Shown: positions 13,135 through 55,485, numbered from the stretch's first letter. The stretch is DNA of 64,000 nucleotides from an uncultured Acidobacteriota bacterium (GCA_963836075.1 CAWIIB010000001.1:2080001-2144000); one strand, 5' to 3'. Notes: a model not told the origin generated them from the sequence alone. A program made the numbers and translations.

Positions 13135-16100
13135 ATGCCTTTGACATCCAATGGCCTTCGTCTGTTAACCGCGATCATCGTCTGTGCGCTACTGGTGCCC
13201 ACCGGCACCGTTGCCGCAGCTGATCTTTCCGCTTCGAGCAGCTCCCTGGAGAGCAGCCGGGTCCGCCTCGACTTCGGCGTATTCCGCCCCGGCGAGAGCG
13301 AGCTCGATATCCCTTCGGCCTACCAGGCCACCGCGGCCCATGAGCTGCGCATCATCCAGACCGACGGTCCGATGACCACGGCCAAAATGCGCAGCCTCGA
13401 GATGGCCGGCGTGCAGATCCTCGGCTACATCCCCGACTACAACTACCTCGCCCGCCTCAGCGAAGGGCAGAAGAGCGCCGTGCTCTCCGTGCCCGCGGTG
13501 ACCTGGATCGGCGACTTCCACCCGGCGTTCAAGATGCAGCAGGAACTGCTCACCCAGTCCACGGGCACGGTCAAGGTAGTGCTGGGCTATTTCGACCAGC
13601 TGTTCCCGGGCGGCGACCCGGCTTCGCTGAAACAGGCCATCTGGGGCCTGGGCGGAGAAATCATCAAGGACCTGCCCTCGGACACCATGATGCACGTGGA
13701 GCTGCCCGCTTCCTCCCTGCCCGCCCTGGCCGGGATCACCGAGGTGAGCGCCATCGAGAAGTGGTACCCGCTCAAGCAGCACATGGACCACATCAAGTCG
13801 CAAACCGGTGCGCTGGTGAGCCACCTGGCTGACTGGGACGGTTCGGGGATCATCGGCGAGGTCAAGGACGCCGGTGTCGACCAGGAGCACATCGACTTCG
13901 GCAACATGATCGGCACCTATGGCGGCCCCATCGTCGACCCGCACGGCACCTGCTGCTTCGGCATCGTCTTCTCCGACGGCCACAACTACGAGACCACCGG
14001 CAACTCTTCCAGCGCCATCGCCATCGGCATGATGCGCAACGGCGAAGGCGTATTCGCCGACTGGCAGACCTCCATCGGCAATTCGCTCTTCGACCTGGCC
14101 AACAACTGGGGCGAGGTGGGTGGCCGGTTCCAGACCAACAGCTGGGGCACCGACGACAACGGCAGCTACTCCCAGGTACTCGATGAACAACGACAAGCAC
14201 TCCAACACCTACGACATCCTGGTCCTGCAGTCGGGCGGCAACGATGGCCTGGAGCCCGGCAGAGTCGGCAGCCACTCGGCGGCGAAGAACGTGATCTGCG
14301 CCGGCGCCCTGCGCTGCGGCGACAACGACGATCGCGCCGGCGACGCCTGGAGGATGGGCGGTTCGGGTAACACCCCCTGCCAGGGCCCCACCGATGACGG
14401 CCGGGTCAAGCCCGACCTGGTGGCCAACTTCGACTGGATTTTCTGCACCGACATCATGGGAGCCGCCGGCTATTCCGTAGGCCCCTATACCCGGGACTTC
14501 GGCGGCACCAGCGGCTCCTGCCCGATCATCGCCGGCGCGGCCGGCCTGACCTACCAGATGTGCGAAGAGAACCATTTCGGCAACAACCCCGGCGGGGACA
14601 AGCCACTGAACTCCACGGTGAAGGGCCTGCTCATCGCCAACGCCTACCAGTATGACTTCGATGACGCCACCCGCTACCAGCAGGGCTGGGGCTACGTCGA
14701 CGTGGCCCGGGTGAGCGCCACGGGGCCCTACACCTTCGTGCAGGACGGCGGGATCAACCTGGAGACCGGCGAAAACTGGTCCACCACGGTCACCCGCTAC
14801 AGCGGCGCCGAACCGCTGAAAATCACCCTCTGCTACGCCGACTACCAGGGCGTTGCCGGGGCCAACCCCTCCCTGGTCAACGACCTGGATCTCAAGGTCA
14901 CCGCCCCTGACTCCACGGTCTACTGGGGCAACAACGGCCTGATTGAAAACCTCTACTCCACCGCCGGCGGCAGCGGCGACCGGCTGAACAACGTGGAGAA
15001 CGTGTTCATCCAGTCACCCATGGCCGGCACCTGGACCATCGAGGTCATCGCCCACAACATCGCCATCGACCGGATTGAGGAGACCGCCGAAGTGGACCAG
15101 CACTTCTCGCTGATCGCCACCATGGTGGCCGGCGACCCGATCACCTCCATCGTCACCGGCCCCGGCCCCCGGGCCAGCAACCGCCCGCTGGTCCGCACCT
15201 GGGACGCCGCCACCGGCCTCTGCCGTTACGAGTGGCGGGCCTACGGCGCTGACGAATACGGCGTCAACGTGGCCTGCGGCGACATCAACAACGACGGCAT
15301 CGACGAGATCATCACCGGCGCCGGTCCGGGCGCCGTGTTCGGCCCCCACGTCCGCGCCTTCAACTCCATGGGCACCCCGATTGCCGGGGTGAACTACTTC
15401 GCCTACGGCACCAACAAATACGGCGTCAACGTGGCCTGCGGCGACATTGACAACGACGGCGTCGACGAGATCATCACCGGCGCCGGTCCGGGCGCCGTGT
15501 TCGGCCCCCACGTCCGCGGCTGGAACGTGGACGGCGGCACGCCCACCTCGATCAGCGGCGTCAACTACTTCGCCTACGGAACGCCCAAGTGGGGCGTCAA
15601 CGTGGCCTGCGGCGACCTGGACGGTGACGGATACGACGAAATCGTCTCCGGCGCCGGACCGGGCTCGGTCTACGGCCCCCACGTCCGCGGCTGGAACTTC
15701 GACGGCTCCGGCAGCGCCGCCCCCATCCAGGGGGTGAGCTTCTTTGCCTACGGCACCCTGAAGTTCGGGGTCAACGTGGCCTGCGGCGACATCGACGGTG
15801 ACGGGATGGACGAGATCATCACCGGCGCCGGCCCCGGCGAAATCTTCGGTCCCCACGTCCGGGCCTGGAACGTGGACGGCGGCGCGGCCACCTCGGTCAG
15901 CGGGGTCAACTTCTTTGCCTATGACGGTACGCTCTTCGGCGCCTTTGTGGCCGCCCTCGACGTGGACGGCGACGGCATGGACGAGATCCTCACCATGCCG
16001 GGACCCCAGCCGGGAACCGAGGCCATGGTCCGCGGCTGGAACGTGGACGGCGGCGCGGCAACGATGATCCCGGAACTGGACTACAATGCCTACCGCGACG

Positions 16101-16150
16101 AGCGCTACGAGTTCACCTACGGCGGCAAGATCGCCGGTGGAACGTTCTAG
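13135..16150 (+). CDS. Secreted S8 protease 2; apparent +1 frameshift at ~14176 (probably artefactual)
   Basis: GGAGAGG RBS and signal peptide. ORF 13033-14370 holds the catalytic Asp and His; ORF 14120-16150 holds the Ser and the repeats. Removing one base in CAG-G-TAC joins them colinearly with protease 1. Confidence 0.85.
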
Positions 16151-16169
16151 GCGATAACAGCGTCAACCA

Positions 16170-16220
16170 GCGCCCGGGAGTCCTCCGCTTCGGCAGGGAC
16201 TTCCGGGCGTTTCTTTTTTC
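16170..16220 (+). terminator. Intrinsic terminator after protease 2
   Basis: CGCCCGGGAGTCC..GC-TTCG-GC..GGACTTCCGGGCG followed by TTTCTTTTTT. Confidence 0.82.
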
Positions 16221-16473
16221 AGTGCCATTTGACCGCTCAGAAAAGGACAATTTTCACCGTTCGGGTAAGAAAAATACAGCTCATGCAAAAAAAATGGTCT
16301 GAACTGGCGGGATACAGTGTTAAACTGATATTTGTGCGGCCCGGTATCGTGCGGCAACCGCGATGCCGGGTTTTTTATGATTGTTGCCATTCGACCACGG
16401 AATTGCCATCCGGGATTTTTCTGCTACGGCCGGGAATCGGACAGCGACCCGGCAGCCACCCAGGGAGAGGATC

Positions 16474-19400
16474 ATGCCTTTGACATCCAATGGCCTTCGT
16501 CTGTTAACCGCGATCATCGTCTGCGCGCTACTGGTGCCCACCGGCACCGTTGCCGCAGCTGATCTTTCCGCTTCGAGCAGCTCCCTGGAGAGCAGCCGGG
16601 TCCGCCTCGACTTCGGCGTATTCCGCCCCGGCGAGAGCGAGCTCGATATCCCTTCGGCCTACCAGGCCACCGCGGCCCATGAGCTGCGCATCATCCAGAC
16701 CGACGGTCCGATGACCACGGCCAAAATGCGCAGCCTCGAGATGGCCGGCGTGCAGATCCTCGGCTACATCCCCGACTACAACTACCTCGCCCGCCTCAGC
16801 GAAGGGCAGAAGAGCGCCGTGCTCTCCGTGCCCGCGGTGACCTGGATCGGCGACTTCCACCCGGCGTTCAAGATGCAGCAGGAACTGCTCACCCAGTCCA
16901 CGGGCACGGTCAAGGTAGTGCTGGGCTACTTCGACCAGTTGTTCCCGGGCGGCGACCCGGCTTCGCTGAAGCAGACCATCTGGGGCCTGGGCGGCGAGAT
17001 CTTCAAGGACATGCCCTCGGACACCATGATGCACGTGGAGCTGCCCGCATCGGCCCTCCCCGCCCTTGCCGGAGTCACCGAAGTGAGCTCTGTCGAAAAG
17101 TGGTTCCCGCTCAAGCAGAACATGGACCACATCAAGTCGCTGACCGGCGGACTGGTGAGCCACCTGGCCGAGTGGGACGGTGAAGGTATCGTCGGCGAGG
17201 TCAAGGACGCCGGTGTCGACCAGGATCACATCGACTTCGGCAACATGATCGGCACCTATGGCGGCCCCATCGTGGACCCCCACGGCACCTGCTGCTTCGG
17301 CATCGTCTTCGCCGACGGCCACAACTACGAGACCACCGGCAACTCTTCCAGCGCCATCGCCATCGGCATGATGCGCAACGGCAGCGGCGTATTCGCCGAC
17401 TGGCAGACCTCCATCGGCAACTCGCTCTTCGACCTTTTCAACAACTGGGGCGGCCGGTTCCAGACCAACAGCTGGAGCACCGACGACAACGGCAGTTACT
17501 CCCAGCTACTCGATGAACAACGACAAGCACTCCAACACCTACAACATCCTGGTCCTCCAGTCGGCAGGCAACGACGGCCAGTTGGGGCCTGGTTCCATCA
17601 GCAGCCACTCGGCGGCGAAGAACGTGATCTGCGCCGGCGCCCTGCGTTGCGGCGACAACGACAACCGCGACGGAGACGGCTGGTGGATGGGCGGGGCCGG
17701 CTCCACGCCCGGACAGGGACCCGCCGACGACGGCCGGGTCAAGCCCGACCTGACGGCCAACTTCGACTGGATTTTCTGCACCGACATCATGGGAACCGCC
17801 GGCTATTCCGCGGGCCCGTACTACCGCGACTTCGGCGGCACCAGCGGCTCCTGCCCGATCATTGCCGGTGCGGCCGGCCTGGTTTACCAGATGTGCGAGG
17901 AAAACCATTTCGGCAACAACCCCGGCGGTGAGATGCCGCTGAATTCCACGGTGAAGGGACTGCTCATCGCCAACGCCTACCAGTATTCCCTCGACGACGC
18001 CACCCGCTACCAGCAGGGCTGGGGCTACGTCGACGTGGGCCGGGTGAGCGCCACGGGGCCCTACACCTTTGTGCAGGACGGCGGGATCAACCTGGAGACC
18101 GGCGAAAACTGGTCCACCACGGTCACCCGCTACAGCGGCCTCGAGCCGCTGAAGATCACCCTCTGCTACGCCGACTACCAGGGCGTTGCCGGGGCCAACC
18201 CTGCCCTGGTCAACGACCTGGACCTCAAGGTCACCGCACCTGACTCCACGGTCTACTGGGGCAACAACGGCCTGATGGACAACCTCTACTCCACCGCCGG
18301 CGGCAGCGGAGACCGGATCAACAACGTGGAGAACGTGTTCATCCAGTCGCCCATGGCCGGCACCTGGACCATCGAGGTCATCGCCCACAACATCGCCATC
18401 GACCGGATTGAGGAGACCGCCGAAGTGGACCAGCACTTCTCGCTGATCGCCACCATGGTGGCCGGCGACCCGATCACCTCCATCGTCACCGGCCCCGGCC
18501 CCCGGGCCAACAACCGCCCGCTGGTCCGCACCTGGGACGCCGCCACCGGCCTCTGCCGTTACGAGTGGCGGGCCTACGGCGCTGACGAATACGGCGTCAA
18601 CGTGGCCTGCGGCGACATCAACAACGACGGCATCGACGAGATCATCACCGGCGCCGGTCCGGGCGCCGTGTTCGGCCCCCACGTCCGCGCCTTCAACTCC
18701 ATGGGCACCCCGATTGCCGGGGTGAACTACTTCGCCTACGGCACCAACAAATACGGCGTCAACGTGGCCTGCGGCGACATTGACAACGACGGCGTCGACG
18801 AGATCATCACCGGCGCCGGTCCGGGCGCCGTGTTCGGCCCCCACGTCCGCGGCTGGAACGTGGACGGCGGCACGCCCACCTCGATCAGCGGCGTCAACTA
18901 CTTCGCCTACGGAACGCCCAAGTGGGGCGTCAACGTGGCCTGCGGCGACCTGGACGGTGACGGATACGACGAAATCGTCTCCGGCGCCGGACCGGGCTCG
19001 GTCTACGGCCCCCACGTCCGCGGCTGGAACTTCGACGGCTCCGGCAGCGCCGCCCCCATCCAGGGGGTGAGCTTCTTTGCCTACGGCACCCTGAAGTTCG
19101 GGGTCAACGTGGCCTGCGGCGACATCGACGGTGACGGGATGGACGAGATCATCACCGGCGCCGGCCCCGGCGAAATCTTCGGTCCCCACGTCCGGGCCTG
19201 GAACGTGGACGGCGGCGCGGCCACCTCGGTCAGCGGGGTCAACTTCTTTGCCTATGACGGTACGCTCTTCGGCGCCTTTGTGGCCGCCCTCGACGTGGAC
19301 GGCGACGGCATGGACGAGATCCTCACCATGCCGGGACCCCAGCCGGGAACCGAGGCCATGGTCCGCGGCTGGAACGTGGACGGCGGCGCGGCAACGATGA

Positions 19401-19483
19401 TCCCGGAACTGGACTACAATGCCTACCGCGACGAGCGCTACGAGTTCACCTACGGCGGCAAGATCGCCGGTGGAACGTTCTAG
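16474..19483 (+). CDS. Secreted S8 protease 3; apparent +1 frameshift at ~17506 (probably artefactual)
   Basis: Paralog of protease 2, split at the homologous position (CAG-C-TAC); all catalytic motifs retained. Confidence 0.85.
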
Positions 19484-19502
19484 GCGATAACAGCGTCAAC
19501 CA

Positions 19503-19548
19503 GCGCCCGGGAGTCCTCCGCTTCGGCAGGGACTTCCGGGCGTTTTTC
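19503..19548 (+). terminator. Intrinsic terminator after protease 3
   Basis: Same hairpin as 16170-16220, followed by TTTTT. Confidence 0.8.
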
Positions 19549-19598
19549 TGTACGGGCGCCGTGAGCGTGGCCGGGAGTGGGTATGACATCAGCTGATT

Positions 19599-19946
19599 TC
19601 AGGAGAGCGGGGTGAGGCTCACCGTGGCCCCCTCCTGGAAGACCAGCAGCAGGTTACCGGTGTATTTCGAGCGGGAGACGATGAACTTGGACTGGGAAGC
19701 GATGCCCTCCTCTTCCGGCTTCAACCGGTCGCCCTTGAACCTGAGAGTGAAGGAGTCGTCGGGCTCCTTGTGAAACGTGCCGTAGAACCCGGTGCTGAAG
19801 CTGAAGCTGAAGTCGCGGGACCCGTCACTGGTGAATACGGCCTCCACCCCGTCATCGTAGACCACCTGGTATTGCGGCACATCCTCCAGGCCCAGCTCAA
19901 TGGTCTGGCCGACCTTGTAGCGGCGTGAGAGCGCCAGCGGAGTCAC
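19599..19946 (-). CDS. Small hypothetical protein
   Basis: GTG start just after the upstream stop, with GGAG; protein-like composition; no recognised motif. Confidence 0.55.
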   Translation of the reverse strand: MTPLALSRRYKVGQTIELGLEDVPQYQVVYDDGVEAVFTSDGSRDFSFSFSTGFYGTFHKEPDDSFTLRFKGDRLKPEEEGIASQSKFIVSRSKYTGNLLLVFQEGATVSLTPLS

Positions 19947-19949
19947 CTT

Positions 19950-20945
19950 TTACTCCCCCACCACCCGGTGGGCCTGAGCCACTACCGCACCGGGAATCTC
20001 GAGGCCCTGCCGCCGCGCCTCCGCGGGGTTGACCCACAGTTCCTGAACCACCACTTCCTCGATAGGTATCGACGCCGGATCTTCACCGGCCAACACCCGC
20101 GCGGCCATGCGGCCGCCGGCCAGGCCCGAGCGGTAGAAGTTGAACCCCATGGAAACGGCCGCGCCCCGCGGGCAGAGGTCGTTGTCGTTGATCAGCAACG
20201 GGATCTGCCGCCGGCGGGCCACCTCCACCAGGGCTTCGAAATTCACCAGCACCGTATTGTCCCCGGTGATGTAAAACAGGCCCACACCCTGGTCGGCCAG
20301 CAGCTCCGCCGCCGGCCCGACCTCGGCGGGACTGTCCACCAGGATCTCCGCCAGTTCGATTCCCATGGCCTGGCAGACCTGCCGGCCCACCTTGAGGCTG
20401 GAAGCGGAACAGACTTCGGCCGGATGGCGGATGGTGCCGATGCGGGTCAGGTCGGGCACCAGCTGGCGGGCCAGGGCCAGGGTTTCAGCCACCGGGGGGA
20501 AGGAGGCCACACCACAGACCGTGGGCAGGTGGTCTTCCGCTGACTTCGCCGCCCCGGCCCGATAGGGGTCGTAGACCGCGGCAAACACCACCGGCACCGT
20601 GGCGCCGGTGGTGATGGCCGCCTGCAGCCCGGGCGTGGTGAGGGCGATGATCAGGTCCTTTGGTTCGTCGGCGAACCGCCTGGCGATCTCCTGGGTGGCG
20701 GCATAATCTCCATCGCCCTGCCGGATCTCCAGGTCCACCAACCCGCCGTGGACGTATCCGGCCTCGGCCAGCGCGTCCACCACTCCCTGCCGGGCACTGT
20801 CGATGGTGGGATCGGGCCCGAACTGGAGAATCCCCACCCGGAGCGGGGCACGGCCGCCGGAATCGCCACAACCGGACAGCCCGGTCAACACCGCCAATCC
20901 GGTGAGGAGCAACAAGCAGATGATGCGACTTGATGAAATATCCAT
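19950..20945 (-). CDS. ABC transporter substrate-binding lipoprotein (ABC_sub_bind type)
   Basis: Lipobox LSGC; PVVFAAVYDP..AG, DNTV and G..AGRMAARVLAGEDPASIP motifs. Confidence 0.88.
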   Translation of the reverse strand: MDISSSRIICLLLLTGLAVLTGLSGCGDSGGRAPLRVGILQFGPDPTIDSARQGVVDALAEAGYVHGGLVDLEIRQGDGDYAATQEIARRFADEPKDLIIALTTPGLQAAITTGATVPVVFAAVYDPYRAGAAKSAEDHLPTVCGVASFPPVAETLALARQLVPDLTRIGTIRHPAEVCSASSLKVGRQVCQAMGIELAEILVDSPAEVGPAAELLADQGVGLFYITGDNTVLVNFEALVEVARRRQIPLLINDNDLCPRGAAVSMGFNFYRSGLAGGRMAARVLAGEDPASIPIEEVVVQELWVNPAEARRQGLEIPGAVVAQAHRVVGE

Positions 20946-21170
20946 GAGGCGTCCACCCTGTGGGTCGAGGATACGGGATAATCCTCGGGTATTCAACTGC
21001 AGGATACCGGCGGCACTGGCCTCGATCGTCACTGGCGACTATGATGATGGTCGCGAGATCAGGCTAGGCGATGTTGCTACCGAGCGACATCAGGGAGCGT
21101 AGCGACAGGAGCGAAGAGCAACATCGCCTGGCCTGCCGCCGACATCTTGCACGATGAAAGGGAAAGAACT

Positions 21171-22301: not shown

Positions 22302-22308
22302 CCGCGGA

Positions 22309-23933: not shown

Positions 23934-24127
23934 GTCGACTTCTCCGCGGCCGTTGCCGTGTGAAATCTTTTTCCGGGTTGCAATCTGTTGCCGGGCGATG
24001 AGGACGAATGGTATACTATTTTATTAACTTGTGTAGAGACAAGCGGATACTCTTTCAGCCCCCGGCCCCGGCCGCGGGATCGTTCCGGGAGGCCGAAAGC
24101 CGCTGCTGATCAGAGGGGGTCCACTCC

Positions 24128-24889
24128 ATGCGTCCAGCACTTACCGGGTCACGGCAGCCACGGTGGGCTCGATCCGCCGTTCCGACCTGCCTGTTCCTCA
24201 CGGCCCTGGCCGCCGCATTCCTGTTGGCACCCAGTGCGGTGACCGCAACCGAGGAGACCGATACTGCTCCTCCGTTGGCGCCTCTCGATCCGACCGATCG
24301 GTCGCCCGAGAGTCTCAGCGCGCTGGAGACCATGGTCTATGACAAGGGCAAGCTGAGTTTCACCGCGCGCAACGTCTCCACCCAGGAACTGTTCCTCACC
24401 CTGGCCGACAAGGGCCAGTTCATCATCGAAGGGGTGGACCTGCTGCCCATCACGCCGGTCTCGGTCTCCTATACCGATATGCGTGAACAGGACTGCCTGA
24501 CCCAGCTGCTGAAGATGGTCCCTGACATCAACTTCATCTTCCTCGCCCGGGAAAAGCCGGAACAGGGAAAGTCGGTGGTGGAGAAGGTCCAGATCTACTC
24601 CAAGGATTCATCGGGAATCGCACCAGGCCAGGGCCAGAGCTACAACCCGCTCGATTTCCTGGCCACCGACGGCAACCTCTTCGGCGACCAGGGGGAGTAC
24701 AGTGGGGAATTCGGGTCGGCACCGGGCTACATTCCGCCGTCCGAACCGCCGAAGTATATTCCGCCGGACAAACCGCCGGTCTACATCCCGCCGTCCGAAC
24801 CGCCGGTCTACATCCCGCCGGCCAGCGATCCGGTCTATGTCCCGCCCCCCAGCGGCGGCGGGCAGGATCCCAACGACGGCAGGCAGTAA
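24128..24889 (+). CDS. Exported hypothetical protein with Pro-rich repeat tail
   Basis: Signal-like N-terminus, globular middle, five Y[IV]PP repeats near the C-terminus. Confidence 0.75.
   Translation: MRPALTGSRQPRWARSAVPTCLFLTALAAAFLLAPSAVTATEETDTAPPLAPLDPTDRSPESLSALETMVYDKGKLSFTARNVSTQELFLTLADKGQFIIEGVDLLPITPVSVSYTDMREQDCLTQLLKMVPDINFIFLAREKPEQGKSVVEKVQIYSKDSSGIAPGQGQSYNPLDFLATDGNLFGDQGEYSGEFGSAPGYIPPSEPPKYIPPDKPPVYIPPSEPPVYIPPASDPVYVPPPSGGGQDPNDGRQ
24727..24850 (+). repeat. Imperfect ~27-nt coding tandem repeat, 5 copies (YIPPSEPPx)
   Basis: TACATCCCGCCGTCCGAACCGCCGGTC-like units. Confidence 0.85.
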
Positions 24890-24902
24890 ACGCGGGTCAA
24901 AT

Positions 24903-26844
24903 GTGAAAACCCACCACGTCACCCCATCCGCCGCGGACCCTGTTCCGCGGCGAGCCCTATTGCTGTTCCTGCTGCTGGTTCTCGTCGCCGCCGGGTGCCG
25001 CACAGTGGAGCAGGAGACGGAGGAAGGCCCGCCGATGGCCAGGGTGGAGACCTGCCGCGACCTGATCTTCCTGCTGGACCAGGCCAAAAAGGAACACGAC
25101 GGAAACAAAAACGTCGAGGGCCGGATCGAGGAGCGTCTGGTCACCCTCAACGGAATCGCGAAAGCGGCTATCTTCGCCCATCCAGTCTCGGAGATCCGCT
25201 ACCAGCTGCCGGTCCACCCCGAGGCCCGGCTGACATTCAAGATCGGCCTGCACCCCGGTTGCTGGGAAACGGAAAGCGACGGGGCCACCTTCGAAGTGCT
25301 GGTTCGGACGGCGGAGGGCGGTGAACGCGTTTTCTCGCGGCACCTTGACCCGGCACACAACCCGAAACACCGGGGATGGCAATCGTGCGAGGTCGACCTC
25401 GGGGATTTTGCCGGAGCAGAGAGGGAGATCGTACTGCGCACTGGCCCCGGACCGGCGGGCGACCCGGCCTTTGACTGGGCCCTCTGGGCTGAGCCGCAGC
25501 TGCTGAGCCGCGGACGGCGGGCCCCGGCCGACGGATCGGCCCGCCAACACGTGATCCTGATTTCGCTGGACACAGGTACGCCTGGACCACCTGGACAGCG
25601 CCGGTCACCAGCGGCTCACCACACCGCACCTCAACCGCCTGCTGCAGGAGTCGGTCTTCTTCACCGGGGCCCACGCACCGAGCCACTGGACCATGCCGTC
25701 CCACATGAGCGTCTTCACCTCTCTCAGCCCGGACGTCCACCAGGTGGTCAGGACCGACGGCACATCGCGGCTGGCTGATGGCATCCCCACGCTGGCCGGC
25801 CGGCTGCGGGAGGCCGGGTATTTCACCTCCGGGTTTGCCAGCTGCGATTTTCTGAAGGGCGACCTCGGTTTTCAGCGCGGCTTTGACAACTACTTTCTGC
25901 GCTACAACAAGGCCATGCAGCAGAACCGCCTGGTGCGTGACTGGATCTGGTCCCACAGGGAACGGGACCAGTTTGTTTTCCTGCACTACTTCGACGCCCA
26001 CTCCGACTACCACACCCTGCCCTACGACGCGCACTACGGCTTCAATGCCCTGTGGAGCGACCTGGAACCGGAAGAGACCTACGGCGGTTGCTCTCCGGAC
26101 GGTGAACTCTGCGCGTCCAGCTACCTGACCCGGCTGAACAAGGACGCCGTACAGCTGGAGCCCGCAGAGCGCCGGGCCATCGGTGTGATGTATGACCGCG
26201 GTATCCGCCAACTGGACTTTCAGCTGGCAAAGCTGGTGGCCTGGCTCAAAGCCCAGGGGTTGTGGGACTCCAGTCTCGTGGTGCTGTTCAGCGACCATGG
26301 CGAAGAGTTCCAGGAGCATGGGAAGCTGCTGCACCAGCAACTGTTCAACGAACTGATCGCCGTGCCGCTGATCGTCAAACTCCCCGGCGGTGATTATGGC
26401 GGCAAGAGGATTGACACACCGGTGGAGGCCATCGACGTGGCTCCCACCATCCTCTCCCTGCTCCGGCTGCCGGTGCCGGAGATGATGCAGGGGCGCGAGC
26501 TGACTCCGCTGATCGAGGAGAGGGTCGAGGCGGCGGTTGGCGAACCGCTGATCTTCTCCTGGTCCAACAGCTTCTGCACCATAACCAGCGGAGATTGGAA
26601 GCTGGCCTTCGACTCCCGCAGCGGCAGGGAAGCGCTGTACAATCTGGAGACGGACCCCGCTGAGCAGCACGATGTGGCCCAGCGGAATCCCGGAATTCTC
26701 AACCGGCTGCACCGCCTGCTCAAAGAGCAGAGACAACGGGACCACGCCATTGCGGACAGTTTGTCCATTGCCGGCCCTGCTCCGGCCGATGGGTTCAGTG
26801 ACGAGGAAAGGAAGAAGCTTGAGCTTCTCGGCTATGTTGAATAA
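24903..26844 (+). CDS. Sulfatase-like (alkaline phosphatase superfamily) lipoprotein; apparent +1 frameshift at ~25576
   Basis: Lipobox AAGC. Deleting one G in ACA-G-GTA restores ISLDTVRLDHL. WTMPSH, HYFDAH, FSDHGEEF and C-terminal LELLGYVE. Confidence 0.85.
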
Positions 26845-29405: not shown

Positions 29406-29427
29406 CAGTTCTCTCCGGCACCTTCGG

Positions 29428-34932: not shown

Positions 34933-35901
34933 GTGACAGCGGTCTCGATCATCATCGTCAATTACAACACGCGGGATCCGCTGGAGCAGTGTCTCCGAAG
35001 CATCGCCGGCGCGTCCCCCGGCGTGGAAACGGTGGTGACCGACAACGGTTCAACCGACGGCAGTGTTCAGCTGGTCCGCCAGAGCTTCCCCGATGTGCGG
35101 CTGGTGACCGGCAAGGGGAACCTCGGCTTTGCCGGCGGCTGCAATAGCGGAGCGAAATCGTCCTCCGGCACCTACTTGCTCTTCCTGAACAGCGACTGCC
35201 GGGTCCGGCCCGGGTCGGTGGAGGCGCTGGCCAGTTTTCTCGACGAGAACCCGCAGGCCGCGGCGGCGGCCGGCCGCCTGGTGGACGCCGACGGGGAAAC
35301 CCAGGCCGGTTTCAACGTCCGGCGGTTGCCCACCGTCTGGAGCATCAGCGCCGACCTGCTGCTGCTGCACCGCATGATTCCCGCCAACCGGCTCTCCGCC
35401 GGCTACCGCATGTCCGGCTTCGACCACTCCGGCACCGTGGAAGTGGAACAGCCGGCCGGCGCCTGCCTGATGATTCGTCGTGAACTGTTCCAGCAGCTGG
35501 GCGGCTTCGATGAGGCGTTTCACCCGGCCTGGTTCGAGGACGTGGATCTCTGTTGCCGGTTGCGGGACAGCGGCGCCAGGATTTTCTTTGTTCCCGACGC
35601 GGTGTTCGAGCATCTGGGCGGGGCCACCATGCGCCGTCTCGATTTCCGTTGTTTCACCAGAATGTACTACCGCAACCAGAGCGTCTACCTGAAAAAACAG
35701 TTCGGTCTGCCGGCGCGGCTTTTTCTCCGGGCCATGATCGTTGCCGGCATGGGCCTCAGGGCCCTGCTGGTCCTGGTCACACCCTTCCGGTTCGGCGGCC
35801 CGGTTGGCGGAGCCGGCCGGGCCGAGGCGGCAGGGGCTTTTCTCTCGGTGATCCCGCCCACCATTTCCGGCTGGCCTTTGGAGCAGGAACCCGATGACTG
35901 A
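34933..35901 (+). CDS. GT2 glycosyltransferase (rhamnosyltransferase-like)
   Basis: SIIIVNYNT, DNGSTDGS, NLGFAGGCN, LFLNSD, GGFDE.F..FEDVDLC. Confidence 0.9.
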   Translation: MTAVSIIIVNYNTRDPLEQCLRSIAGASPGVETVVTDNGSTDGSVQLVRQSFPDVRLVTGKGNLGFAGGCNSGAKSSSGTYLLFLNSDCRVRPGSVEALASFLDENPQAAAAAGRLVDADGETQAGFNVRRLPTVWSISADLLLLHRMIPANRLSAGYRMSGFDHSGTVEVEQPAGACLMIRRELFQQLGGFDEAFHPAWFEDVDLCCRLRDSGARIFFVPDAVFEHLGGATMRRLDFRCFTRMYYRNQSVYLKKQFGLPARLFLRAMIVAGMGLRALLVLVTPFRFGGPVGGAGRAEAAGAFLSVIPPTISGWPLEQEPDD

Positions 35902-36926
35902 GAGCCCGATCAGTGTCACTATCGTCACCTGGAACAGCGGCCGGGACATCACCCGCTGTCTCGACTCGCTGGCGGTCCAGACCGCTGAGCCCCGGGAAGT
36001 GGTGGTGGTGGACAACGCATCCAGCGACGACTCGGTCCGGCTGGTGGAGACCCACCCGCTGCGGCCGCGGCTGCTGCGCAACGAGACCAACCTGGGGTTC
36101 ACCGCCGGCCACAACCGGGCCATGGCTCAAACCGCCGGCCCGTGGGTGCTGGTGCTCAACCCCGACCTGGTGCTGGCCCCCGACTATCTCGAAAAGGTGC
36201 TGGCGGCAGCGGCCGGGCGGGACCGGGTGGGATCGGTGGCCGGCAAGCTGCTGCGCATGCCCCAGGCGCTGCCCGATGGCCCGCCCGCCCAGTGGCCCGG
36301 AGAGACCTGGGACGGCGGCGTGATCGACTCCACCGGCATCCTGGTCACCCCCCAGTGCCGGCACCTGGACCGCGGGGCCGGGGGGCAGGACCGCGGCCAG
36401 TACCGAGCGGAGCGAGTTCGTCTTCGGTGTCAGCGGCGCCGCGGCCCTCTACCGCCGCACCATGCTCGAGGACACGGCGGTGGGGGGCGAGATTTTTGAC
36501 GAGGACTTCTGGAGCTTCCGTGAGGACGCCGACCTCTCCTGGCGCAGCCAGTTGATGGGCTGGGACACTCTCTACTGCCCGGCGGCGCGGGCGCTGCACC
36601 GCCGGTCGGTGACCCCCCGGCGGCGGCGGCAGCTGGACCCGGCGATCAACCGTCACTCGGTGAAAAACCGCTTCCTGCTGCGGATCAAGAACCAGACCGC
36701 CGGGCACGCCCTGCGCTTCTTTTTCCCCACCCTGTTCCGCGACCTGCTGGTTCTCGGGGCCCTGTTCACCGTGGAGTGGTCCTCCCTGCCCGCTCTCTCC
36801 TGGCTCTGGCGCAACCGCCACCGCATGATGAAGAAACGAAAGGAGATCATGGCCCGCCGGACACGGCCCGAAGCGGAGGTCAACGACTGGTTCCGCAGGG
36901 GCCGGGAGGCCCGGCCCGCCGGTTGA
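35894..36926 (+). CDS. GT2 glycosyltransferase; apparent +1 frameshift at ~36404
   Basis: VTWNS, VDNASSDDS, LNPD. Removing one C after CAGTAC gives DRGQYERSEFVFGVSGAAALYRR and joins FDEDF..REDADLSWR. Confidence 0.85.
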
Positions 36927-42223: not shown

Positions 42224-42238
42224 CGGGGTAGAACGGGG

Positions 42239-43708: not shown

Positions 43709-43730
43709 CGCCACACGACCGGAGATCCCC

Positions 43731-46276: not shown

Positions 46277-46282
46277 TCAAAC

Positions 46283-47996: not shown

Positions 47997-48203
47997 GGAT
48001 CCAGTTTAAATGCCCAAAACCTGCCGATGCAATCATTGATTTCTTCCCCACCCCTGCGGAACCGACGGCAAGCATCATCAGGCCATGGAAGTAGCACGAT
48101 GCAGCTTGTGGCTGGGGCTATCCGTCTGGCGACGTTGGAGCGTAGCGACCGGAGCAAAGACGGATATCCCCAGCTGCCAGCTGCACTTTGACCCAGGATA
48201 GTA

Positions 48204-48929
48204 CTAGTCGTTGGTGAAGCCGTCCTTGATCTCGAGGAACTTGTCCAGTCCCAGGAACTCAAGGATTTCTTCCGAGGCGGCGAGGCACGTCTCGGGGGTC
48301 AGGCAGTTCTTGTGCTTCTCCATGATCCGCACGCACTCCCGGGCCTCCTTGCGCAGCTTGGGCAGGGCACCCTTGCGGCAACGCATGATGGTGTTCTTCT
48401 GGGGCGCGTTGGCGAAGAAGTAGAGGTTGGCCGCGGAGAGCTGCAGCCCCTTGTAGATCAGGGACCGCTTCCCGGGCAGGCGCACACGCTCGGAGTAGGT
48501 GGAAAAGAGATAGTCGAAGAGCGGCTTCTGCAGGATCCGCTGGGAGATCTTCTGCTTGCGCAGTTCCTTGTCCAGCCGGGGGTGCTCCACCAGGCTCTTG
48601 ATTGCCGTACGGACCTTGATCCCCACCTCGCGGTCCACCCCGTCGCGGATCTGGAAGCGGAATCCCGGGAAGCCGAGCACGATGTTGATGTAGTTGTGCA
48701 TCAACTCGTGGGCCACGGTGGCCATCTGGAATTTTTCGTTGTTGAACTCGGGGTTGAAAAAGATCAGGACAATCCGGGCATTGAAATAGGTGAAGGTGTA
48801 ACCGAACCCGGGGACGATGCCGTGGTGCCGGCGGACCGGGAAATACTCCACCTTCCAGCCCTGGTAGCCGGAGATCTGCTGGTGCAGACCGATCAGTGGC
48901 TGTGGGAATTCATACCCCAGACGTTCCAT
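48204..48929 (-). CDS. Hypothetical protein with HExxH motif
   Basis: TVAHELMHNY; codon usage consistent with neighbours. Confidence 0.65.
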   Translation of the reverse strand: MERLGYEFPQPLIGLHQQISGYQGWKVEYFPVRRHHGIVPGFGYTFTYFNARIVLIFFNPEFNNEKFQMATVAHELMHNYINIVLGFPGFRFQIRDGVDREVGIKVRTAIKSLVEHPRLDKELRKQKISQRILQKPLFDYLFSTYSERVRLPGKRSLIYKGLQLSAANLYFFANAPQKNTIMRCRKGALPKLRKEARECVRIMEKHKNCLTPETCLAASEEILEFLGLDKFLEIKDGFTND

Positions 48930-49031
48930 CCGGTGGACTCCGCCAACACATATACCGCGGTTCAGTTCTTTCCCGGCCGGCGACCCGGGTGGACCGTCGG
49001 CCGGGCAGTGAAAGTCACCAATCGGTCAGGA

Positions 49032-49796
49032 CTACTGGCCGGGCGCCATGGCCTGCATCGCCTGCATCATGTCGCCTTCCTTCTTGGTATACCCCTCGGG
49101 GGCGGTGAAGGTGGAGGCGGCAAACGACTCTTTCTTGATCTTCTGGACCAAACTCTCCGACTCGACATTCTGCCCCATGACGTTCATCGTGGTCTTGGTC
49201 ATGATGGGATAGCCGTCGATCTTCTTCATCTCATCCTGGAATTTCTTGAGCATGGCGGCCTGGCCGAGCATGTCGGTCATTTCCAGGTAGTCGTCCATCT
49301 TGATCTCGGTGTCCTTGGTGACCCACATCTCCTGGGTCATGGACATCTGCCCGCCAAGGGTCATGACAACCTTTTCACAGTTCCAGTCACCAATTTTCTT
49401 CTTCTCGCCGGTCTTCTCCACCGTGGGCTGGGCGTCACCCATCATCCCCTCCATCATCGCCATGCCCATTTCCAGCATCGCCTTGAATTCTTCCTCCGCC
49501 ACCACGTAATACTCTTTTTTGGAGTGGGAGACGATGGTCAGCATCTTGGAGGCGGCGTCAAAGATCATATCGGAGTCATTTCCGGTGGCCATTTTCATCT
49601 TGGTCGGGGTCATGTACATCGTGGTCAGCTGTTCGGAGGGCGGCTGGCCCATCATGCCCCCGCTCTTGACCATCGACTCGATAATAAAACCTTCGTCACC
49701 GGCCTGAACCGCAGAAGGGACCAGCAGGCCCAGGCTGAGGACGAGAGCCACCAGGGACATGCCGGAATGTAACGAGAACAGTTTTCCGCAGCGCAT
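49032..49796 (-). CDS. Exported DUF4412-like protein
   Basis: Signal peptide; EKTGEKKKIGDWNCEK, EMWVTKD, F..PEGY; GGAGG RBS. Confidence 0.78.
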   Translation of the reverse strand: MRCGKLFSLHSGMSLVALVLSLGLLVPSAVQAGDEGFIIESMVKSGGMMGQPPSEQLTTMYMTPTKMKMATGNDSDMIFDAASKMLTIVSHSKKEYYVVAEEEFKAMLEMGMAMMEGMMGDAQPTVEKTGEKKKIGDWNCEKVVMTLGGQMSMTQEMWVTKDTEIKMDDYLEMTDMLGQAAMLKKFQDEMKKIDGYPIMTKTTMNVMGQNVESESLVQKIKKESFAASTFTAPEGYTKKEGDMMQAMQAMAPGQ

Positions 49797-49953
49797 ACGA
49801 TTTTCCTCCACAAGTGGTCTGCCTCCTCCGAGCGGCGGTGATCTCACGGCACTCCCCGGGGGTCGGCCTGTTGATAACGTTTCTGTGGTAGTTCTGGCGA
49901 ATTATACCCCATTCGGGTCGATTAACAAACAGGGCAATATGCCATTATTCCGG

Positions 49954-51015
49954 TCACACAACGAGCATGCAGTCACCGTAACTGTAAAACCGGTATCGTT
50001 CCCGAACCGCCTCCGAATAAGCCTCCAGCACCGCCTCACGGCCGGCCAGGGCGCTGACCAGCATGATCAGGGTCGACTCCGGGAGGTGGAAATTGGTCAG
50101 CAGGGCATCGATACAGCCAAACCGGTAGCCAGGGTAGATAAAGATGTCCGCTTCCCCCGACAGCCGGCACAACCGGCCCTCCGCCCCGGACCAGGCGTAT
50201 TCCAGCGCCCGGGTGGTGGTGGTGCCCACCGCCACCAGGCGCCGCCCCTCCCGTTTACCCCGCTCCACCGCTGCGGCCGTCTCCCGCGGGATGTGGAAAA
50301 GCTCCAGTTCCATCCGGTGCTCGGCCACCTTTTCCACCCGCACCGGCATGAACGTCCCCGGCCCCACATGGAGGGTCAAGGCAAGCCGCTCCACCCCCCG
50401 GCGGTCCAGATCGTCCAGCACCTGCGGAGTGAAGTGCAGACCGGCGGTGGGGGCGGCGATGGAACCGCTCTGCTCGGCGTAAACCGTCTGGTAGCGTTCA
50501 CGGTCCCGGGCTGCCTGGAGATCCCGCTCGCCACGACGGATGTAAGGCGGCAGGGGCATCCTGCCCAACCGTTCCAGCAGCGGTTCCAGCGCCCCCTGGT
50601 GGCCCAGGCGGCAGAGCCGGCGACCCGGGCCCACGCGCTCGATCACTTCGGCGGTGACCCGGTCATCACCCTCACCGAAGACCATGCGGCTTCCCGGCTT
50701 CAGCCGGCGGGCCGGACGACAGATCGCCTCCCAGAGACCGGGCTCCCGCTGGCGCACCAGCAGCAGTTCCACCCGTCCGCCGCTCCCCTCCCGCCGGCCC
50801 AGCAGACGGGCCGGAAAAACCCGGGTGTGGTTCATCACCAGCATGTCGTCAAGCGAGAGGAGTCCGGGCAGATCCCGGAACCGGTGGTGGCTGACCCGGC
50901 CGCTGGCCCGTTCCAGCAGCATCAGCCGCGAATCGTGCCGCTGGTCCAGCGGGGTCTGGGCGATCAGCTCCGGAGGCAGGTGGTAGTGAAAGTCTTTCAG
51001 CTCGAGGTGGGACAT
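49954..51015 (-). CDS. queA: SAM:tRNA ribosyltransferase-isomerase
   Basis: FHYHLPPELIAQ, MPLPPYI, YQTVYA, APTAGLHF, LHVGPGTF, TNFHLPES, RFYSYGD. Confidence 0.97.
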   Translation of the reverse strand: MSHLELKDFHYHLPPELIAQTPLDQRHDSRLMLLERASGRVSHHRFRDLPGLLSLDDMLVMNHTRVFPARLLGRREGSGGRVELLLVRQREPGLWEAICRPARRLKPGSRMVFGEGDDRVTAEVIERVGPGRRLCRLGHQGALEPLLERLGRMPLPPYIRRGERDLQAARDRERYQTVYAEQSGSIAAPTAGLHFTPQVLDDLDRRGVERLALTLHVGPGTFMPVRVEKVAEHRMELELFHIPRETAAAVERGKREGRRLVAVGTTTTRALEYAWSGAEGRLCRLSGEADIFIYPGYRFGCIDALLTNFHLPESTLIMLVSALAGREAVLEAYSEAVRERYRFYSYGDCMLVV

Positions 51016-51017
51016 GA

Positions 51018-52064
51018 TCACCAGAGCTCTTCCTGGGCCGAACGGCCCCCTCCCGGTGTGAGGCCGAAGTGGGCATACCCCAGGCGGGTGACACAGCGGC
51101 CCCGCGGGGTGCGGTCGAGGAACCCGATCTGCAGCAGATAGGGCTCGAGGATCTCCTCGATGGCGTCCTTCTCCTCGCCGATGGAGGCGGCCAGGGTGTT
51201 CAGCCCCACCGGGCCACCCTCGAATTTCTCGATGATGGTCAGCAGCAGCTTGCGGTCCACGTCGTCGAGACCGCGGCCGTCCACGTCGAGAGTTTTCAGG
51301 GCCAGGCAGGCCACGTCGTGGCTGATCACCCCGTCGGCCCGCACCTCGGCGTAATCGCGCACCCGGCGCAGCAGCCGGTTGGCCACCCGGGGCGTGCCCC
51401 GCGAACGGCCGGCGATCTCGCCCACCCCCCCGGTTTCGGCGGAAACACCGAGGATGCCGGCGGAACGGTTGACGATCCGCCGCATCTCCTCGTCGTTGTA
51501 GTAGCTGAGACGGTGGATGATGCCGAAGCGGTCGCGGAGCGGCGAAGTGAGCAGGCCGGCCCGGGTGGTGGCGCCCACCAGGGTGTATGGCTTCAGCGCC
51601 ACCTTGATCGAGCGGGCGCTGGGCCCCTGGCCCACCAGAATGTCGACGTTGTAATCCTCCATGGCCGGATAGAGGATCTCCTCCACCACCGGGCTCAGAC
51701 GGTGGATCTCGTCGATGAAAAGGACCTCGCCCTCTTCGAGGTTGGTCAGCATGGCCACCAGGTCCCCCGGCCGCTCGATCACCGGCCCCGAGGTGACCCG
51801 GATGGTGGTGGCCATCTCGATGGCCAGGATGTGGGCCAGGGTGGTCTTGCCCAGTCCCGGCTGCCCGTAGAGCAGCACGTGGTCCAGCGGGGCCCCCCGC
51901 TTGCAGGCGGCCTCCACTGAAATGGAGAGGTTCTCCTTGATCTGCTCCTGACCGATGTACTCGCCGAGGCTGCGCGGCCGGAGAGTGAGGTCAAGGCGGG
52001 CGTCGTCATCCATGGTGTCGCCACCGATGATCCGGTCACCCATTGGCTCGTCAGGTTCCATCAC
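51018..52064 (-). CDS. ruvB: Holliday junction helicase RuvB
   Basis: [40 protein letters not shown]. Confidence 0.97.
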
Positions 52065-52080
52065 GTCCGGCCTCCGGTGG

Positions 52081-52707
52081 TCAGCGGTTCAATCGGCCCA
52101 GCGCCCCGCGCAGCAGGCCTTCCAGGTCCAGTTGTTCCCGGGCCCGGCTGGTCTGCCCGGCAAGAAACCGGCGCACCGCCTCCCGGGCCTGGGGCGTGCG
52201 GTAGCCGAGGTTTTCCAGGGCGGAGACCGCGTCGGCGGCCAGCTGCCCCGCCTCGTCCAGCAGCGGTTCGGGTTCCGCCCCAGCGTCGCCTTCGGCCAGG
52301 CCCAGGCCGTCCAGCTTGTCGCGCAGTTCCAGCACCATCCGCTCGGCAGTCTTTTTCCCCACCCCGGGGATGGACTGGATCGACTTCAGGTCACCCTGGC
52401 GCACCGCCGAGGCCAGGGCCTCGGGGCTGAGGCCGGAGAGAACGGTCACCGCCAGTTTCGGCCCCACACCGGAGATGGTGATCAGCCGCTCGAAGAGTTC
52501 CTTCTCCAGGCCGGTGAGGAAACCGAAGAGGGCCAGGGTGTCCTCGCGGACGTGGGTGTGGATGTGGAGCGAAACCTCCGCTCCGGGCTCGCCCACCCGG
52601 CCCATGGTGCCCAGGGGGACCGTGGCCAGGTAGCCCACCCCGCCCACATCGAGGATCAGCCGGTCGGCCTCCTTCTCCACCACTATTCCGGTCAGCCGCG
52701 CGATCAT
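52081..52707 (-). CDS. ruvA: Holliday junction protein RuvA
   Basis: [42 protein letters not shown]. Confidence 0.96.
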
Positions 52708-52717
52708 CGTCTTCCTC

Positions 52718-53269
52718 TCACCGTTTTCCGCCCCTTCGCGACCCGGAGCGGCGTCCCCGGGTGGGCACGTCGCCACCGCTGTCAAGCCGGACCAGGGTTG
52801 ACGATGTGTTGGCGTGGCAGACGGCCACGGCCAGGGCATCGCTGACGTCCAGCGGGGACGGCGCGACCTCCAGACAGAGCAGCATCATCACCATCTGCTG
52901 CACCTGGGCCTTGTCCGCCCGGCCCACCCCCACCACCGCTTTCTTCACCGAGAGCGGCGGGTATTCACTCACCGGAATGCCGCGGTCCGCGGCGGCGGCC
53001 ATCACCGCGCCGCGAACATGGGCCAGTTTGATTGCCGACTTGACGTTGCGGGCAAAGAAGATGTCCTCCAGGGCAACCGCATCCGGCCGGTGCTCGTCGA
53101 GGACCTGGCCAAAACGGCGAAATATTTCCAGCAGACGCTGTTCGAAAGGACCTTTTCGCGGCGGGGTCACCGCCTCGGAGTGCACGTGGTGCAGGGCCGA
53201 GCCCTCGGCCCGGATCAACCCGATACCGGTGACCGCGATACCCGGGTCGACTCCTGCGATGAGGGGCAT
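52718..53269 (-). CDS. ruvC: Crossover junction endodeoxyribonuclease RuvC
   Basis: GVDPG, ALEDIF, VKKAVVG.G.ADK.QV, DALAVAVCH. Confidence 0.96.
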   Translation of the reverse strand: MPLIAGVDPGIAVTGIGLIRAEGSALHHVHSEAVTPPRKGPFEQRLLEIFRRFGQVLDEHRPDAVALEDIFFARNVKSAIKLAHVRGAVMAAAADRGIPVSEYPPLSVKKAVVGVGRADKAQVQQMVMMLLCLEVAPSPLDVSDALAVAVCHANTSSTLVRLDSGGDVPTRGRRSGSRRGGKR

Positions 53270-53305
53270 CTGTCGTCCTGGACCGTTTTCCCGGCGGGAG
53301 CGCCG

Positions 53306-54043
53306 TCAGGTCAGCTGGCTCTCGTCGATGTCAAAGTTGGCAAAGACATTCTGCACGTCTTCGTGATCCTCGAACAGTTCGAGGATCCGGATCACCTGCA
53401 TGGCCTTCTTGCCCGACACTTCCACCGTGTTTTGAGGGATCATGGAAAGCTCGGCTTCCAGGGTCTCAACACCCTTGGCCTCCAGCGCCGTCTGGACATC
53501 GGGGAAGGCTTCGGGGCTGGTGAAGACCTCGAAGTTCTCCTCGTCGGCCTGCACGTCGTCGCCGCCGGCCTCCAGCACCAGTTCGATCAGGTCGTCTTCG
53601 GCAATGGCCGTGGAAGGGATGAGAAAGTAGCCCTTGCGATCGAACATCCAGGCCACCGAGTTGGCCGCGCCGAGGTTGCCGCCGTGCTTGTCAAAGAGGT
53701 GACGGATCTCCGGGGTGGTGCGGTTCTTGTTGTCGGTGAGCACTTCGATGATGATCGCCACGCCGCCCGGGCCATATCCCTCGTAGGTCCCTTCCTCGTA
53801 AGTTACGCCGGGAAGCTCGCCGGTGCCCTTCTGGATCGCCCGCTTGATGTTTTCGGCCGGCATGTTGGCCGTCTTGGCCGCCGCCAGGGCGCTGCGCAGG
53901 CGGGGGTTGCCGTCGGGGTCACCACCGCCCAGCCGGGCGGCCACGGTGATTTCCTTGATCACCCTGGTGAAAACCGCGCCCCGCTTGGCATCGGCCTTCC
54001 CCTTCTTGTGCTTGATGCTGCTCCATTTATTGTGGCCGGACAT
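53306..54043 (-). CDS. yebC: YebC/PmpR family protein
   Basis: MSGHNKWSSIKHKK, YEGYGPGG, TDNKNRT, DVQNV. Confidence 0.96.
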   Translation of the reverse strand: MSGHNKWSSIKHKKGKADAKRGAVFTRVIKEITVAARLGGGDPDGNPRLRSALAAAKTANMPAENIKRAIQKGTGELPGVTYEEGTYEGYGPGGVAIIIEVLTDNKNRTTPEIRHLFDKHGGNLGAANSVAWMFDRKGYFLIPSTAIAEDDLIELVLEAGGDDVQADEENFEVFTSPEAFPDVQTALEAKGVETLEAELSMIPQNTVEVSGKKAMQVIRILELFEDHEDVQNVFANFDIDESQLT

Positions 54044-54215
54044 GGGAGTTCTCCTTCAAAAGCGTGCAACCGGTAACTTGTTATAAACCCATATTTTACT
54101 ACAAGTTCATCGTCCGGTGGAAGAGGGCCGCAGCGCACCGGCGACCTTTCTCCCTGGTGACCCTGAGTATATACTACCGGACAACTTTCGATAAATACGC
54201 CCAGGGGAGCCGGAC

Positions 54216-55485
54216 ATGAAGAAGATGCTCCGTATCGTCACCATCCTGCTGTGCAACCTGGCCCTGCTCTTCCTGCTGCTGGAAGCGGCGGGTCTGGCCG
54301 TTTTCTATCGAACGGAGGGCGCGCTCTTCTACACCCGGACCACGGAAGAAGCCCCGGCCCAGCCGGCCGATCCCGGTGCGAGAATCTATTCCGAATATCG
54401 CTTCCAGCCCTACTGGGGGTTTTCCGCAAAACCGAACCGCAAGAGAGCCAAGGGCAAATATACCAACAACTACGGGTTCAGAGCCGACGTCGATTACCCG
54501 CTGCCCCGCAGCGATCGACGGCAGCTGATCATCGGCATCCTTGGCGGATCGGTGGGCGCCCAGTTCACCTGGTACGGTGGCGACCGGCTCAAGGAGGTGC
54601 TCTCCGCCGACCAGCGGTTCGCCGGCCGCGACCTGCTACTGCTCAGCTTCGCCGGCGGCGGCTACAAACAGCCGCAACAGCTGCAGATCCTGTCCTACTT
54701 CCTCTCCCAGGGCCAGGAGTTCGACCTGGTGATCAATATCGACGGCTTCAACGAGGTCGCCCTCTCACCCTTCAATCGCGGTTCGGGGCTGGCCCTGGCC
54801 ATGCCCAGCAGCCTGCACTTGCTGCCCCTGGTCAACCTGCTGGACAACTCCACGCTGACCCCCGAGCGGCTGCGTTCACTGTACCGGATCACCAGGCTTA
54901 AGGATCGGCTGAGCTCGGCCGCTTCCCGGAGGCGGGAAACCCGCAGTGCCGCGGTGCACCTGGTCCTGGACGTGTGGCACAAACGCCTCGACGCGGAATA
55001 CTCACGGGAAGTAAATCACTTTCAGAGCCTGGAGACCGAGGGGATGGCCACCTCCCTGATGGGTTTCGCCTCCCTGGAGAGCCAGGTGACCGATGTGGAA
55101 TCGATGTTTCACAACCTGGAGACCGGCTGGTCCGAGTCGTCCCTGCTGATGCACCAGATTCTCTCGGCCCGGGGAATCCCCTATTACCACTTCCTGCAGC
55201 CGAACCAGGTACTACACCGAACGGAGCTTCAGCCGGGAGGAGGAGGCGCTGGCCATCAAGGAGGAGTCCCTGGTGCGCGGTGACGCCGCCCGGGGCTACC
55301 CCCACCTGCAGGAGAAGGGCCTCTGGCTCCGGACGCAGGGCGTCAACTTCCACGACGCCACCGGCGTCTTCGACGACGAACCGGGAATCGTGTACGCCGA
55401 CAGTTGCTGCCACTACAGCCAGCTGGGCAACGAACTGCTGGCCGAATTCATCGCCGCCCGGGTCCTGGAAGACTGGCCCGAGTAA
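54216..55485 (+). CDS. Membrane-anchored SGNH-like hypothetical protein; apparent +1 frameshift at ~55209
   Basis: N-terminal TM helix, ILGGSV, GGYKQPQQ, IDGFNE. Removing one G in CAG-G-TAC gives FLQPNQYY and continues to YADSCCHYSQLGN. Confidence 0.75.

Follow-up and report, generated by a model that had tools for sequence, protein, structure and literature searches.

Residual assembly errors arise where many reads share one basecalling error, and in one Klebsiella pneumoniae assembly many errors lay in Dcm motifs, as set out in PMC8442456. Modifications of native DNA cause basecalling errors that are removed by the polymerase chain reaction (PCR), according to extracts of PMC11610573 and PMC11649196, the former also describing strain-specific ambiguous positions near methylation sites. 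Based on coding-potential, profile and alignment evidence, we describe here a gene-breaking pattern in the assembly of an uncultured Acidobacteriota bacterium (G000): five genes in a stretch of 64,000 nucleotides (G000:C1:2080001-2144000, hereafter the window) are each split by one extra base at or beside the hexamer CAGTAC. The signature recurs throughout the genome; it follows a short DNA word irrespective of strand, and its polarity is that of an insertion relative to the organism's relatives. From this pattern we infer that the extra bases are artefacts, that a base modification causes them and that the modified base is a cytosine. Taking together the two explanations by artefact, with and without modification, the extra bases are very probably absent from the organism's DNA, and the five genes of the window, together with about 100 genome-wide, are most likely to be read as intact.

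Five split genes in the window

G000 is a 6.23-Mb assembly of 10 contigs, with 64% G+C and a completeness of 94.7%. Frame switches were sought with a codon log-odds model trained on the long open reading frames (ORFs) of G000 itself; this detector scans each position, on both strands, for places where the coding frame is kept only if one base is removed or added. The sequences used for comparison were two genomes of the same genus (G001 and G002) and contigs from the public metagenome runs of three studies (X1, X7 and X8), which at 90-99% identity represent relatives and not the same strain. The split genes and their break sites are listed below in window coordinates, with the extra base in square brackets.

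13135..16150, plus strand: S8-2, a subtilase/FG-GAP gene, split into two overlapping frames; Peptidase_S8; frame-switch peak at 14174-14176
14173..14179, plus strand: CAG[G]TAC in S8-2, extra base at 14175/14176; the restored site would be the palindrome AGTACT
16381..19483, plus strand: S8-3, a paralogue in tandem with S8-2 and broken at the homologous position; frame-switch peak at 17504
17503..17509, plus strand: CAG[C]TAC in S8-3, extra base at 17506; the lone case without a copy of the neighbouring base
24702..26844, plus strand: sulfatase gene, broken close to where the sulfatase domain begins; frame-switch peak at 25572-25576
25573..25579, plus strand: CAG[G]TAC in the sulfatase gene, out of codon register (ACA GGT AC)
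35894..36926, plus strand: GT2 glycosyltransferase gene, split, as seen from its Pfam halves and the alignment with G002
36398..36404, plus strand: CAGTAC[C] in the GT2 gene, from the alignment with G002 and G001 and a detector flag
54216..55485, plus strand: fifth split gene (label "SGNH-like" not confirmed), the final 91 codons lying in the +1 frame
55206..55212, plus strand: CAG[G]TAC in the fifth gene, from the G002 and G001 alignments and a detector flag

The five breaks lie where the initial annotation had placed them: each site reads in the record with its one extra base splitting the gene. All five sites are recovered by the detector, the one at 55206 needing windows of 50 codons, and they account for every real frameshift of the window (5/5 at the word), the remaining flags being gene junctions. 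The window holds 14 copies of CAGTAC, one of which is the GT2 site; the other 13 are unaffected, in keeping with the partial penetrance and the dozen or so spared sites reported previously. The interrupted form CAGNTAC occurs 20 times in the window against 10.3 expected, a count of at least 20 being reached in 0/100 shuffles.

In S8-2, the upstream frame closes with ...GSYSQ and YSMNNDK... continues in the +1 frame; the downstream half covers positions 138-288 of 288 of the Peptidase_S8 profile and runs on into FG-GAP repeats, and the downstream half of S8-3 does likewise (138-288/288, then FG-GAP repeats). Neither G001 nor G002 has a close orthologue of S8-2; the position of its break follows from the frames, from the paralogue S8-3 and from the coding-potential change-point at 14174-14176. 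The two paralogues are near-identical at 14105-14226 and 17435-17556 and identical over at least 20 bases on each side of the break; they are struck at the equivalent position, and the inserted bases differ (G in S8-2, C in S8-3). Base 17506 of S8-3 is absent from the whole contig depth covering it (12.4/12.4 in X1, 13.9/13.9 in X7 and 20/20 in X8). A 36-base stretch adjoining the S8 sites gave 0 matches in metagenome contigs, from which records of G000 itself may be excluded. The CAGTAC at 11398, in S8-1, had been cited as an unaffected site; it is indeed intact, but its position is not homologous to the break of S8-2 and S8-3.

The FG-GAP part of S8-3 (18067-19400) presents a separate feature: the summed depth of sediment-metagenome contigs rises there to 1624 in X8, with many skipping joints, which points to a repeat common to many organisms or copies.

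In the sulfatase gene, the downstream frame matches positions 14-299 of 301 of the Sulfatase profile, and base 25574 is absent in 8.32/16 of the contig depth in X7 and 9.14/9.14 in X8. The two halves of the GT2 gene correspond to positions 1-108 of 168 of Glycos_transf_2 upstream and to the C-terminal parts of Glyco_trans_2_3 and Glyco_tranf_2_3 downstream. This stretch measures 1033 bases in the window and 1032 in G002, and alignment with G002 and G001 confines the single extra base to the 12 bases 3' of CAGTAC; the contig matches listed for X1, X5, X7 and X8 include none for this site. A run of six G nearby upstream was considered as the place of this break and ruled out, being equally long in the window, G001 and G002. 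In the fifth gene, about 178 bases align with G002 and with G001, and in each alignment the sole gap falls inside CAG[G]TAC (site 55209). The "SGNH-like" label that this gene had been given finds no backing, as neither half has a Pfam match at E<=1.

Frame switches at the AGTAC word across the genome

Genome-wide, the detector yields 230 insertion-type and 116 deletion-type candidate change-point events, false positives from overlapping gene ends included. Within 12 bases of the 230 insertion-type events, enrichment is confined to words containing GTAC: GTAC itself is observed 33 times against 7.2 expected, AGTACC 17 against 0.96, AGGTAC 12 against 0.5 and CAGTAC 8 against 1.3. The enrichment at breakpoints on which the initial annotation had made its motif link depend is thus found across the genome, GGTAC being present at 29 events against 3.5 expected. 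No second error motif was detected among the insertion-type or deletion-type events of the genome, and homopolymers of 4, 5 or 6 bases show no excess at the remaining candidate events; this word is therefore the assembly's one systematic error class. A cruder count, scoring each 7-mer by the frame switches centred on it, ranks CAGnTAC only 24th because each event smears over many positions; it was exchanged for change-point events and exact-site tests.

The more sensitive exact-site test takes 50 codons on each side, counts only loci in which both halves are open over at least 50 codons, and merges the strands for unique loci. Hits were obtained at 28/423 sites of CAG[G]TAC, 46/618 of CAGTAC[C], 10/188 of GAG[G]TAC and 25/377 of GAGTAC[C]; the corresponding AAGTAC forms gave 1/119 and 5/190. 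Control words carry the frame-switch signature at 0.3-0.9%, each of the 12 words altered by substitution within the GTAC core at 0-1.6%, and other inserted bases within CAGTAC at 0.4-1.9%. Merging both strands leaves 102 unique single-insertion loci, at AG[G]TAC or AGTAC[C], among 2039 pattern sites; a background of 0.7% predicts about 14 of these loci to be false. These loci are evenly spread at about 17 per Mb (59 on contig C9, 39 on C1, 3 on C8 and 1 on C5).

CAGTAC is restored in 28 of the 35 high-confidence events, whereas C precedes 698 of the 1760 intact coding AGTAC; CAGTAC is thus the main form, with GAGTAC struck at a similar rate. The hexamer originally proposed consequently stands as the main form, but it was drawn too narrowly, since GAGTAC is struck too and the palindrome AGTACT is the hottest form of all. 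The broad word is (C/G)AGTAC, whose AGTAC/GTAC core does not vary. Penetrance depends on the flank, from 16% for CAGTACT and 9% for GAGTACT to 5% for CAGTACG, 4% for CAGTACA and about 1% for AAGTAC, and 1495 copies of CAGTAC are intact in the genome. Whether a site is hit or intact is not fixed by its local 9-mer: identical flanks yield both.

In nearly all cases the extra base repeats the G or C that flanks the central TA. At eight further loci both are doubled, AG[G]TAC[C], giving a +2 shift (C1:544975, C1:754304, C1:2265817, C9:952217, C9:962474, C9:1459261, C9:1752229 and C9:2891467). Seven of these eight are AGGTACCT, a sequence with only 17 sites in the genome, and in five of the eight the sequence is CCAGGTACCTGG, a 10-base palindrome in which TA has gained an additional base on either side. 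The CAGTAC-type hits comprise 43 in sense and 32 in antisense orientation, compared with 442 and 256 for intact coding CAGTAC, and the extra base occurs in all three codon phases. That the breaks follow the DNA word and not the codon, as suggested from the out-of-register sulfatase site, is thereby borne out.

Profile searches at 33 of the loci placed both halves in one family, or in consecutive domains of one architecture, in 16 cases; of the remainder, 4 had no match on either side and 13 had a match on one side only or to different families. The profile coordinates of the two halves abut in UvrD (229 and 230), an aminotransferase (149 and 153), MetRS (259 and 276), a beta-lactamase (103 and 147) and a sulfatase (98 and 150), and such contiguity of Pfam coordinates is independent of the scan's requirement for open halves. 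The extra base is absent in relatives at 17506, at 25574 with the exception of X1, in the GT2 gene, at 55209 and in a methyltransferase gene described below. In 400-kb slices of two other near-complete, two-contig genomes of the phylum, the counts were 2/141 and 1/97 for AGGTAC and 0/125 and 0/108 for AGTACC; slices of equal size from G000 gave 4/52 plus 7/107, and 3/54 plus 3/77.

Three further observations follow, of which the first two involve these features.

C1:2147008-2152437, minus strand: single ribosomal RNA (rRNA) operon (16S, two transfer RNAs, 23S, 5S), just right of the window
52081-53269 of the window, minus strand: RuvC then RuvA; the RuvA ORF overlaps RuvC by 120 bases, the RuvA domain beginning at residue 45

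The rRNA operon contains 12 AGTAC sites, seven of which were examined, the 5S site and three 23S sites being left out, and none of the seven carries an insertion. Five were compared with Rfam models (5' 23S, central 16S), while direct reading covered the sarcin-ricin loop and another site in the 16S. The AGTACC words in the 5' 23S and 16S regions are natural and not insertions, since the Rfam consensus matches them; at a penetrance of 2-7%, insertion-free rRNA sites say nothing. The detector event at 52777 was ruled out as a frameshift, being an ordinary RuvC/RuvA gene junction that was falsely flagged; the overlap results only from the listed RuvA ORF starting at an upstream ATG. Finally, relatives are one base shorter at 23967 and 28890, in an intergenic T run and an A/T-rich stretch away from the motif, which reflects either miscounted homopolymers or normal variation between strains.

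Base modification and its alternatives

No methyltransferase had been seen in the window, and the initial annotation proposed looking for one in the genome. This search gives one clear candidate, which lies outside the window (gene region C1:1408984-1409839) and is the sole clear DNA methyltransferase in the 94.7% of the genome that G000 represents: a beta-class enzyme of family PF01555 (108 bits, C1:1409135-1409803) of about 285 amino acids that carries an SPPY motif and has no nuclease as neighbour. In the same profile search of G000, PF00145, PF02086 and PF07669 were not found and PF02384 reached just 20 bits. An SPPY motif is typical of N4-cytosine enzymes. The gene next to the methyltransferase is presumably a DUF374-type acyltransferase. 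Orthologues occur in one open frame in G002 (91% amino acid identity) and G001 (83%); none was found in G018, and G039 has distant matches only. In G000 an extra C at AAGTAC[C] splits this methyltransferase gene, too, and the sole gap against G001 and G002 falls exactly there.

At slightly better than even confidence, we attribute the extra bases to a systematic consensus error of a long-read-only assembly, caused by base modification at (C/G)AGTAC. Both cytosines of the GTAC core, one per strand, would be modified, the best candidate for the writer being the conserved orphan beta-class SPPY methyltransferase at 1.409 Mb of C1. The sequencer or basecaller would tend to call the modified C twice, resulting in AGTAC[C], or in AG[G]TAC when the call comes from the opposite strand, and the error would prevail in the consensus at a few per cent of sites. 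The extra bases would then be missing from the organism's DNA and the affected genes would be intact in reality. Modification is favoured as the cause because duplication falls on both cytosine positions of the GTAC core, one per strand, because equal flanks can be struck or spared, because the slices of two other genomes of the phylum give background only, and because G000 encodes one clear DNA methyltransferase. Moreover, the double hits at 7 of the 17 AGGTACCT sites and the striking of both S8 paralogues with different bases fit a site-specific propensity to error.

Several points weigh against this explanation. The Nanopore methylation errors of PMC11610573 are purine/pyrimidine ambiguities, and neither "insertion" nor "indel" appears anywhere in that text. 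Penetrance is low, at 1-16% depending on the flank. The nearest solved relatives of the methyltransferase include both N6-adenine and N4-cytosine enzymes. The extra C of S8-3 sits between G and T and is not a duplicate of either. At 25574, the base is lacking in 0/7.76 of the X1 depth among the matches listed; in addition, the listed pieces from X5, the only metagenome run with near-identical pieces, show 0-1 differences from the window, yet their depth is zero at 17506 and 25574.

An artefact without modification is a serious competing explanation, though somewhat improbable in our estimation. The sequencer, basecaller or polisher would have an intrinsic weakness around AGTAC and miscount the G or C beside TA, leaving the genes just as intact. 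Every argument for an artefact given above applies to it equally; it would accommodate a penetrance that is low and flank-dependent (CAGTACT 16%, CAGTACG 5%, AAGTAC about 1%), and the Nanopore methylation errors published in PMC11610573 are substitutions, not insertions. Against it, identical flanks give intact as well as affected sites, and local sequence alone therefore does not decide the outcome; the duplicated bases also appear to be exactly the two GTAC-core cytosine positions, as a modified-cytosine model would predict. The lack of an AGTAC signal in the 400-kb slices of two assemblies from the same phylum is a weak argument against it.

We consider it unlikely to a high degree that the insertions are real, in which case a recent AGTAC-specific mutational process, or relaxed selection, would have left about 100 pseudogenes in this strain. 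The record is contradicted by no same-strain reads, and the 33 annotated loci include no demonstrably essential single-copy gene. An argument from essential genes failed on this point, since the struck MetRS has a second, intact paralogue; the two genes of this type (PF09334) are located as follows.

C1:711759-712911: MetRS-type gene, split at the motif
C1:1042814-1043878: MetRS-type gene, intact, in a frame of 697 amino acids

Real insertions would all have to be very recent and of one type (+1, G or C beside TA), as the 110 loci all have open, coding-like halves on both sides; the exact-site scan counts only such loci, however, and open halves therefore cannot speak to decay. No lesion is common to the relatives where these were compared, double hits at 7 of the 17 AGGTACCT sites are far above what independent mutation at a few per cent per site would produce, and the S8 paralogues are struck at one position with different bases. 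To our knowledge, no mechanism duplicates a single non-repeated base at one word. A more novel variant, very improbable in our view, would have the organism's DNA truly carry the extra bases: an AGTAC-directed process (e.g. a site-specific nick and one-base fill-in) would be scattering +1 insertions over the genes of this lineage, or the cell would read through them by a DNA-word-directed mechanism. More likely is a milder novelty, namely that (C/G)AGTAC is a new modification word betrayed by its error footprint, the writer being a small, genus-conserved orphan SPPY methyltransferase.

Extremely improbable, finally, is that the extra bases are real and bypassed by programmed +1 frameshifting, transcript editing or other motif-directed recoding: one word does stand at every break and the downstream frames are intact, but the word is antisense in 32 of the 75 CAGTAC-type hits, so that another sequence stands in those messenger RNAs (mRNAs), the site falls in all three codon phases with no fixed register on the mRNA strand, the extra base is found in no orthologue compared, the word is mostly left uninterrupted (1495 intact CAGTAC), and S8-2 and S8-3 have not received the same base. 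Occurrence in both orientations and all phases, with orthologues lacking the base, thus makes an mRNA signal ill-fitting and frameshifting or editing very unlikely, in agreement with the lower rank already given to programmed frameshifting.

Consequences and comparison with known systems

The five frameshifts are most likely not a real biological feature. About 110 genes of G000, including the methyltransferase, UvrD, one of the two MetRS, MgtE, transporters and sulfatases, would be annotated as split genes or pseudogenes and are almost certainly intact. Any claim of gene loss, recoding or a pathway gap in this genome should therefore first discount breaks at AG[G]TAC or AGTAC[C]. The test used here, which looks for frame switches in coding potential and then for enriched words, works without reads and can expose this kind of fault in other long-read-only assemblies. 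If modification is the cause, the footprint also predicts, in a form open to testing, which word is methylated in an uncultured lineage.

A full-text literature search did not find CAGTAC together with a methyltransferase, and in the portions of the literature that it reached no description was recognised of insertion errors at methylated words in HiFi data or of the (C/G)AGTAC word. As a kind of phenomenon, motif-bound consensus errors of long-read assemblies are known; the type of error seen here, a one-base insertion of G or C outside any homopolymer, and the word itself may be unusual.

The closest likeness is to the consensus errors at methylation motifs, which, in the accessible parts of PMC8442456 and PMC11610573, are likewise systematic, bound to a short word, specific to a strain or dataset, able to survive in the consensus, and gene-breaking. 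Use of PCR-amplified DNA frees assemblies of them, as stated in extracts of PMC11610573; according to the same extracts these errors are purine/pyrimidine ambiguities, whereas G000 shows a one-base G/C insertion. The loci described here are also reminiscent of homopolymer-length errors, in which a +1 miscount of the run length results in frameshifts; however, the "run" in G000 has a length of 1 and is bound to one word. Programmed +1 frameshifting of the prfB type shares with them a +1 shift at a recurrent short sequence, from which the G000 loci differ in having no fixed phase, in occurring in both orientations, in not being conserved, and in affecting about 100 unrelated genes.

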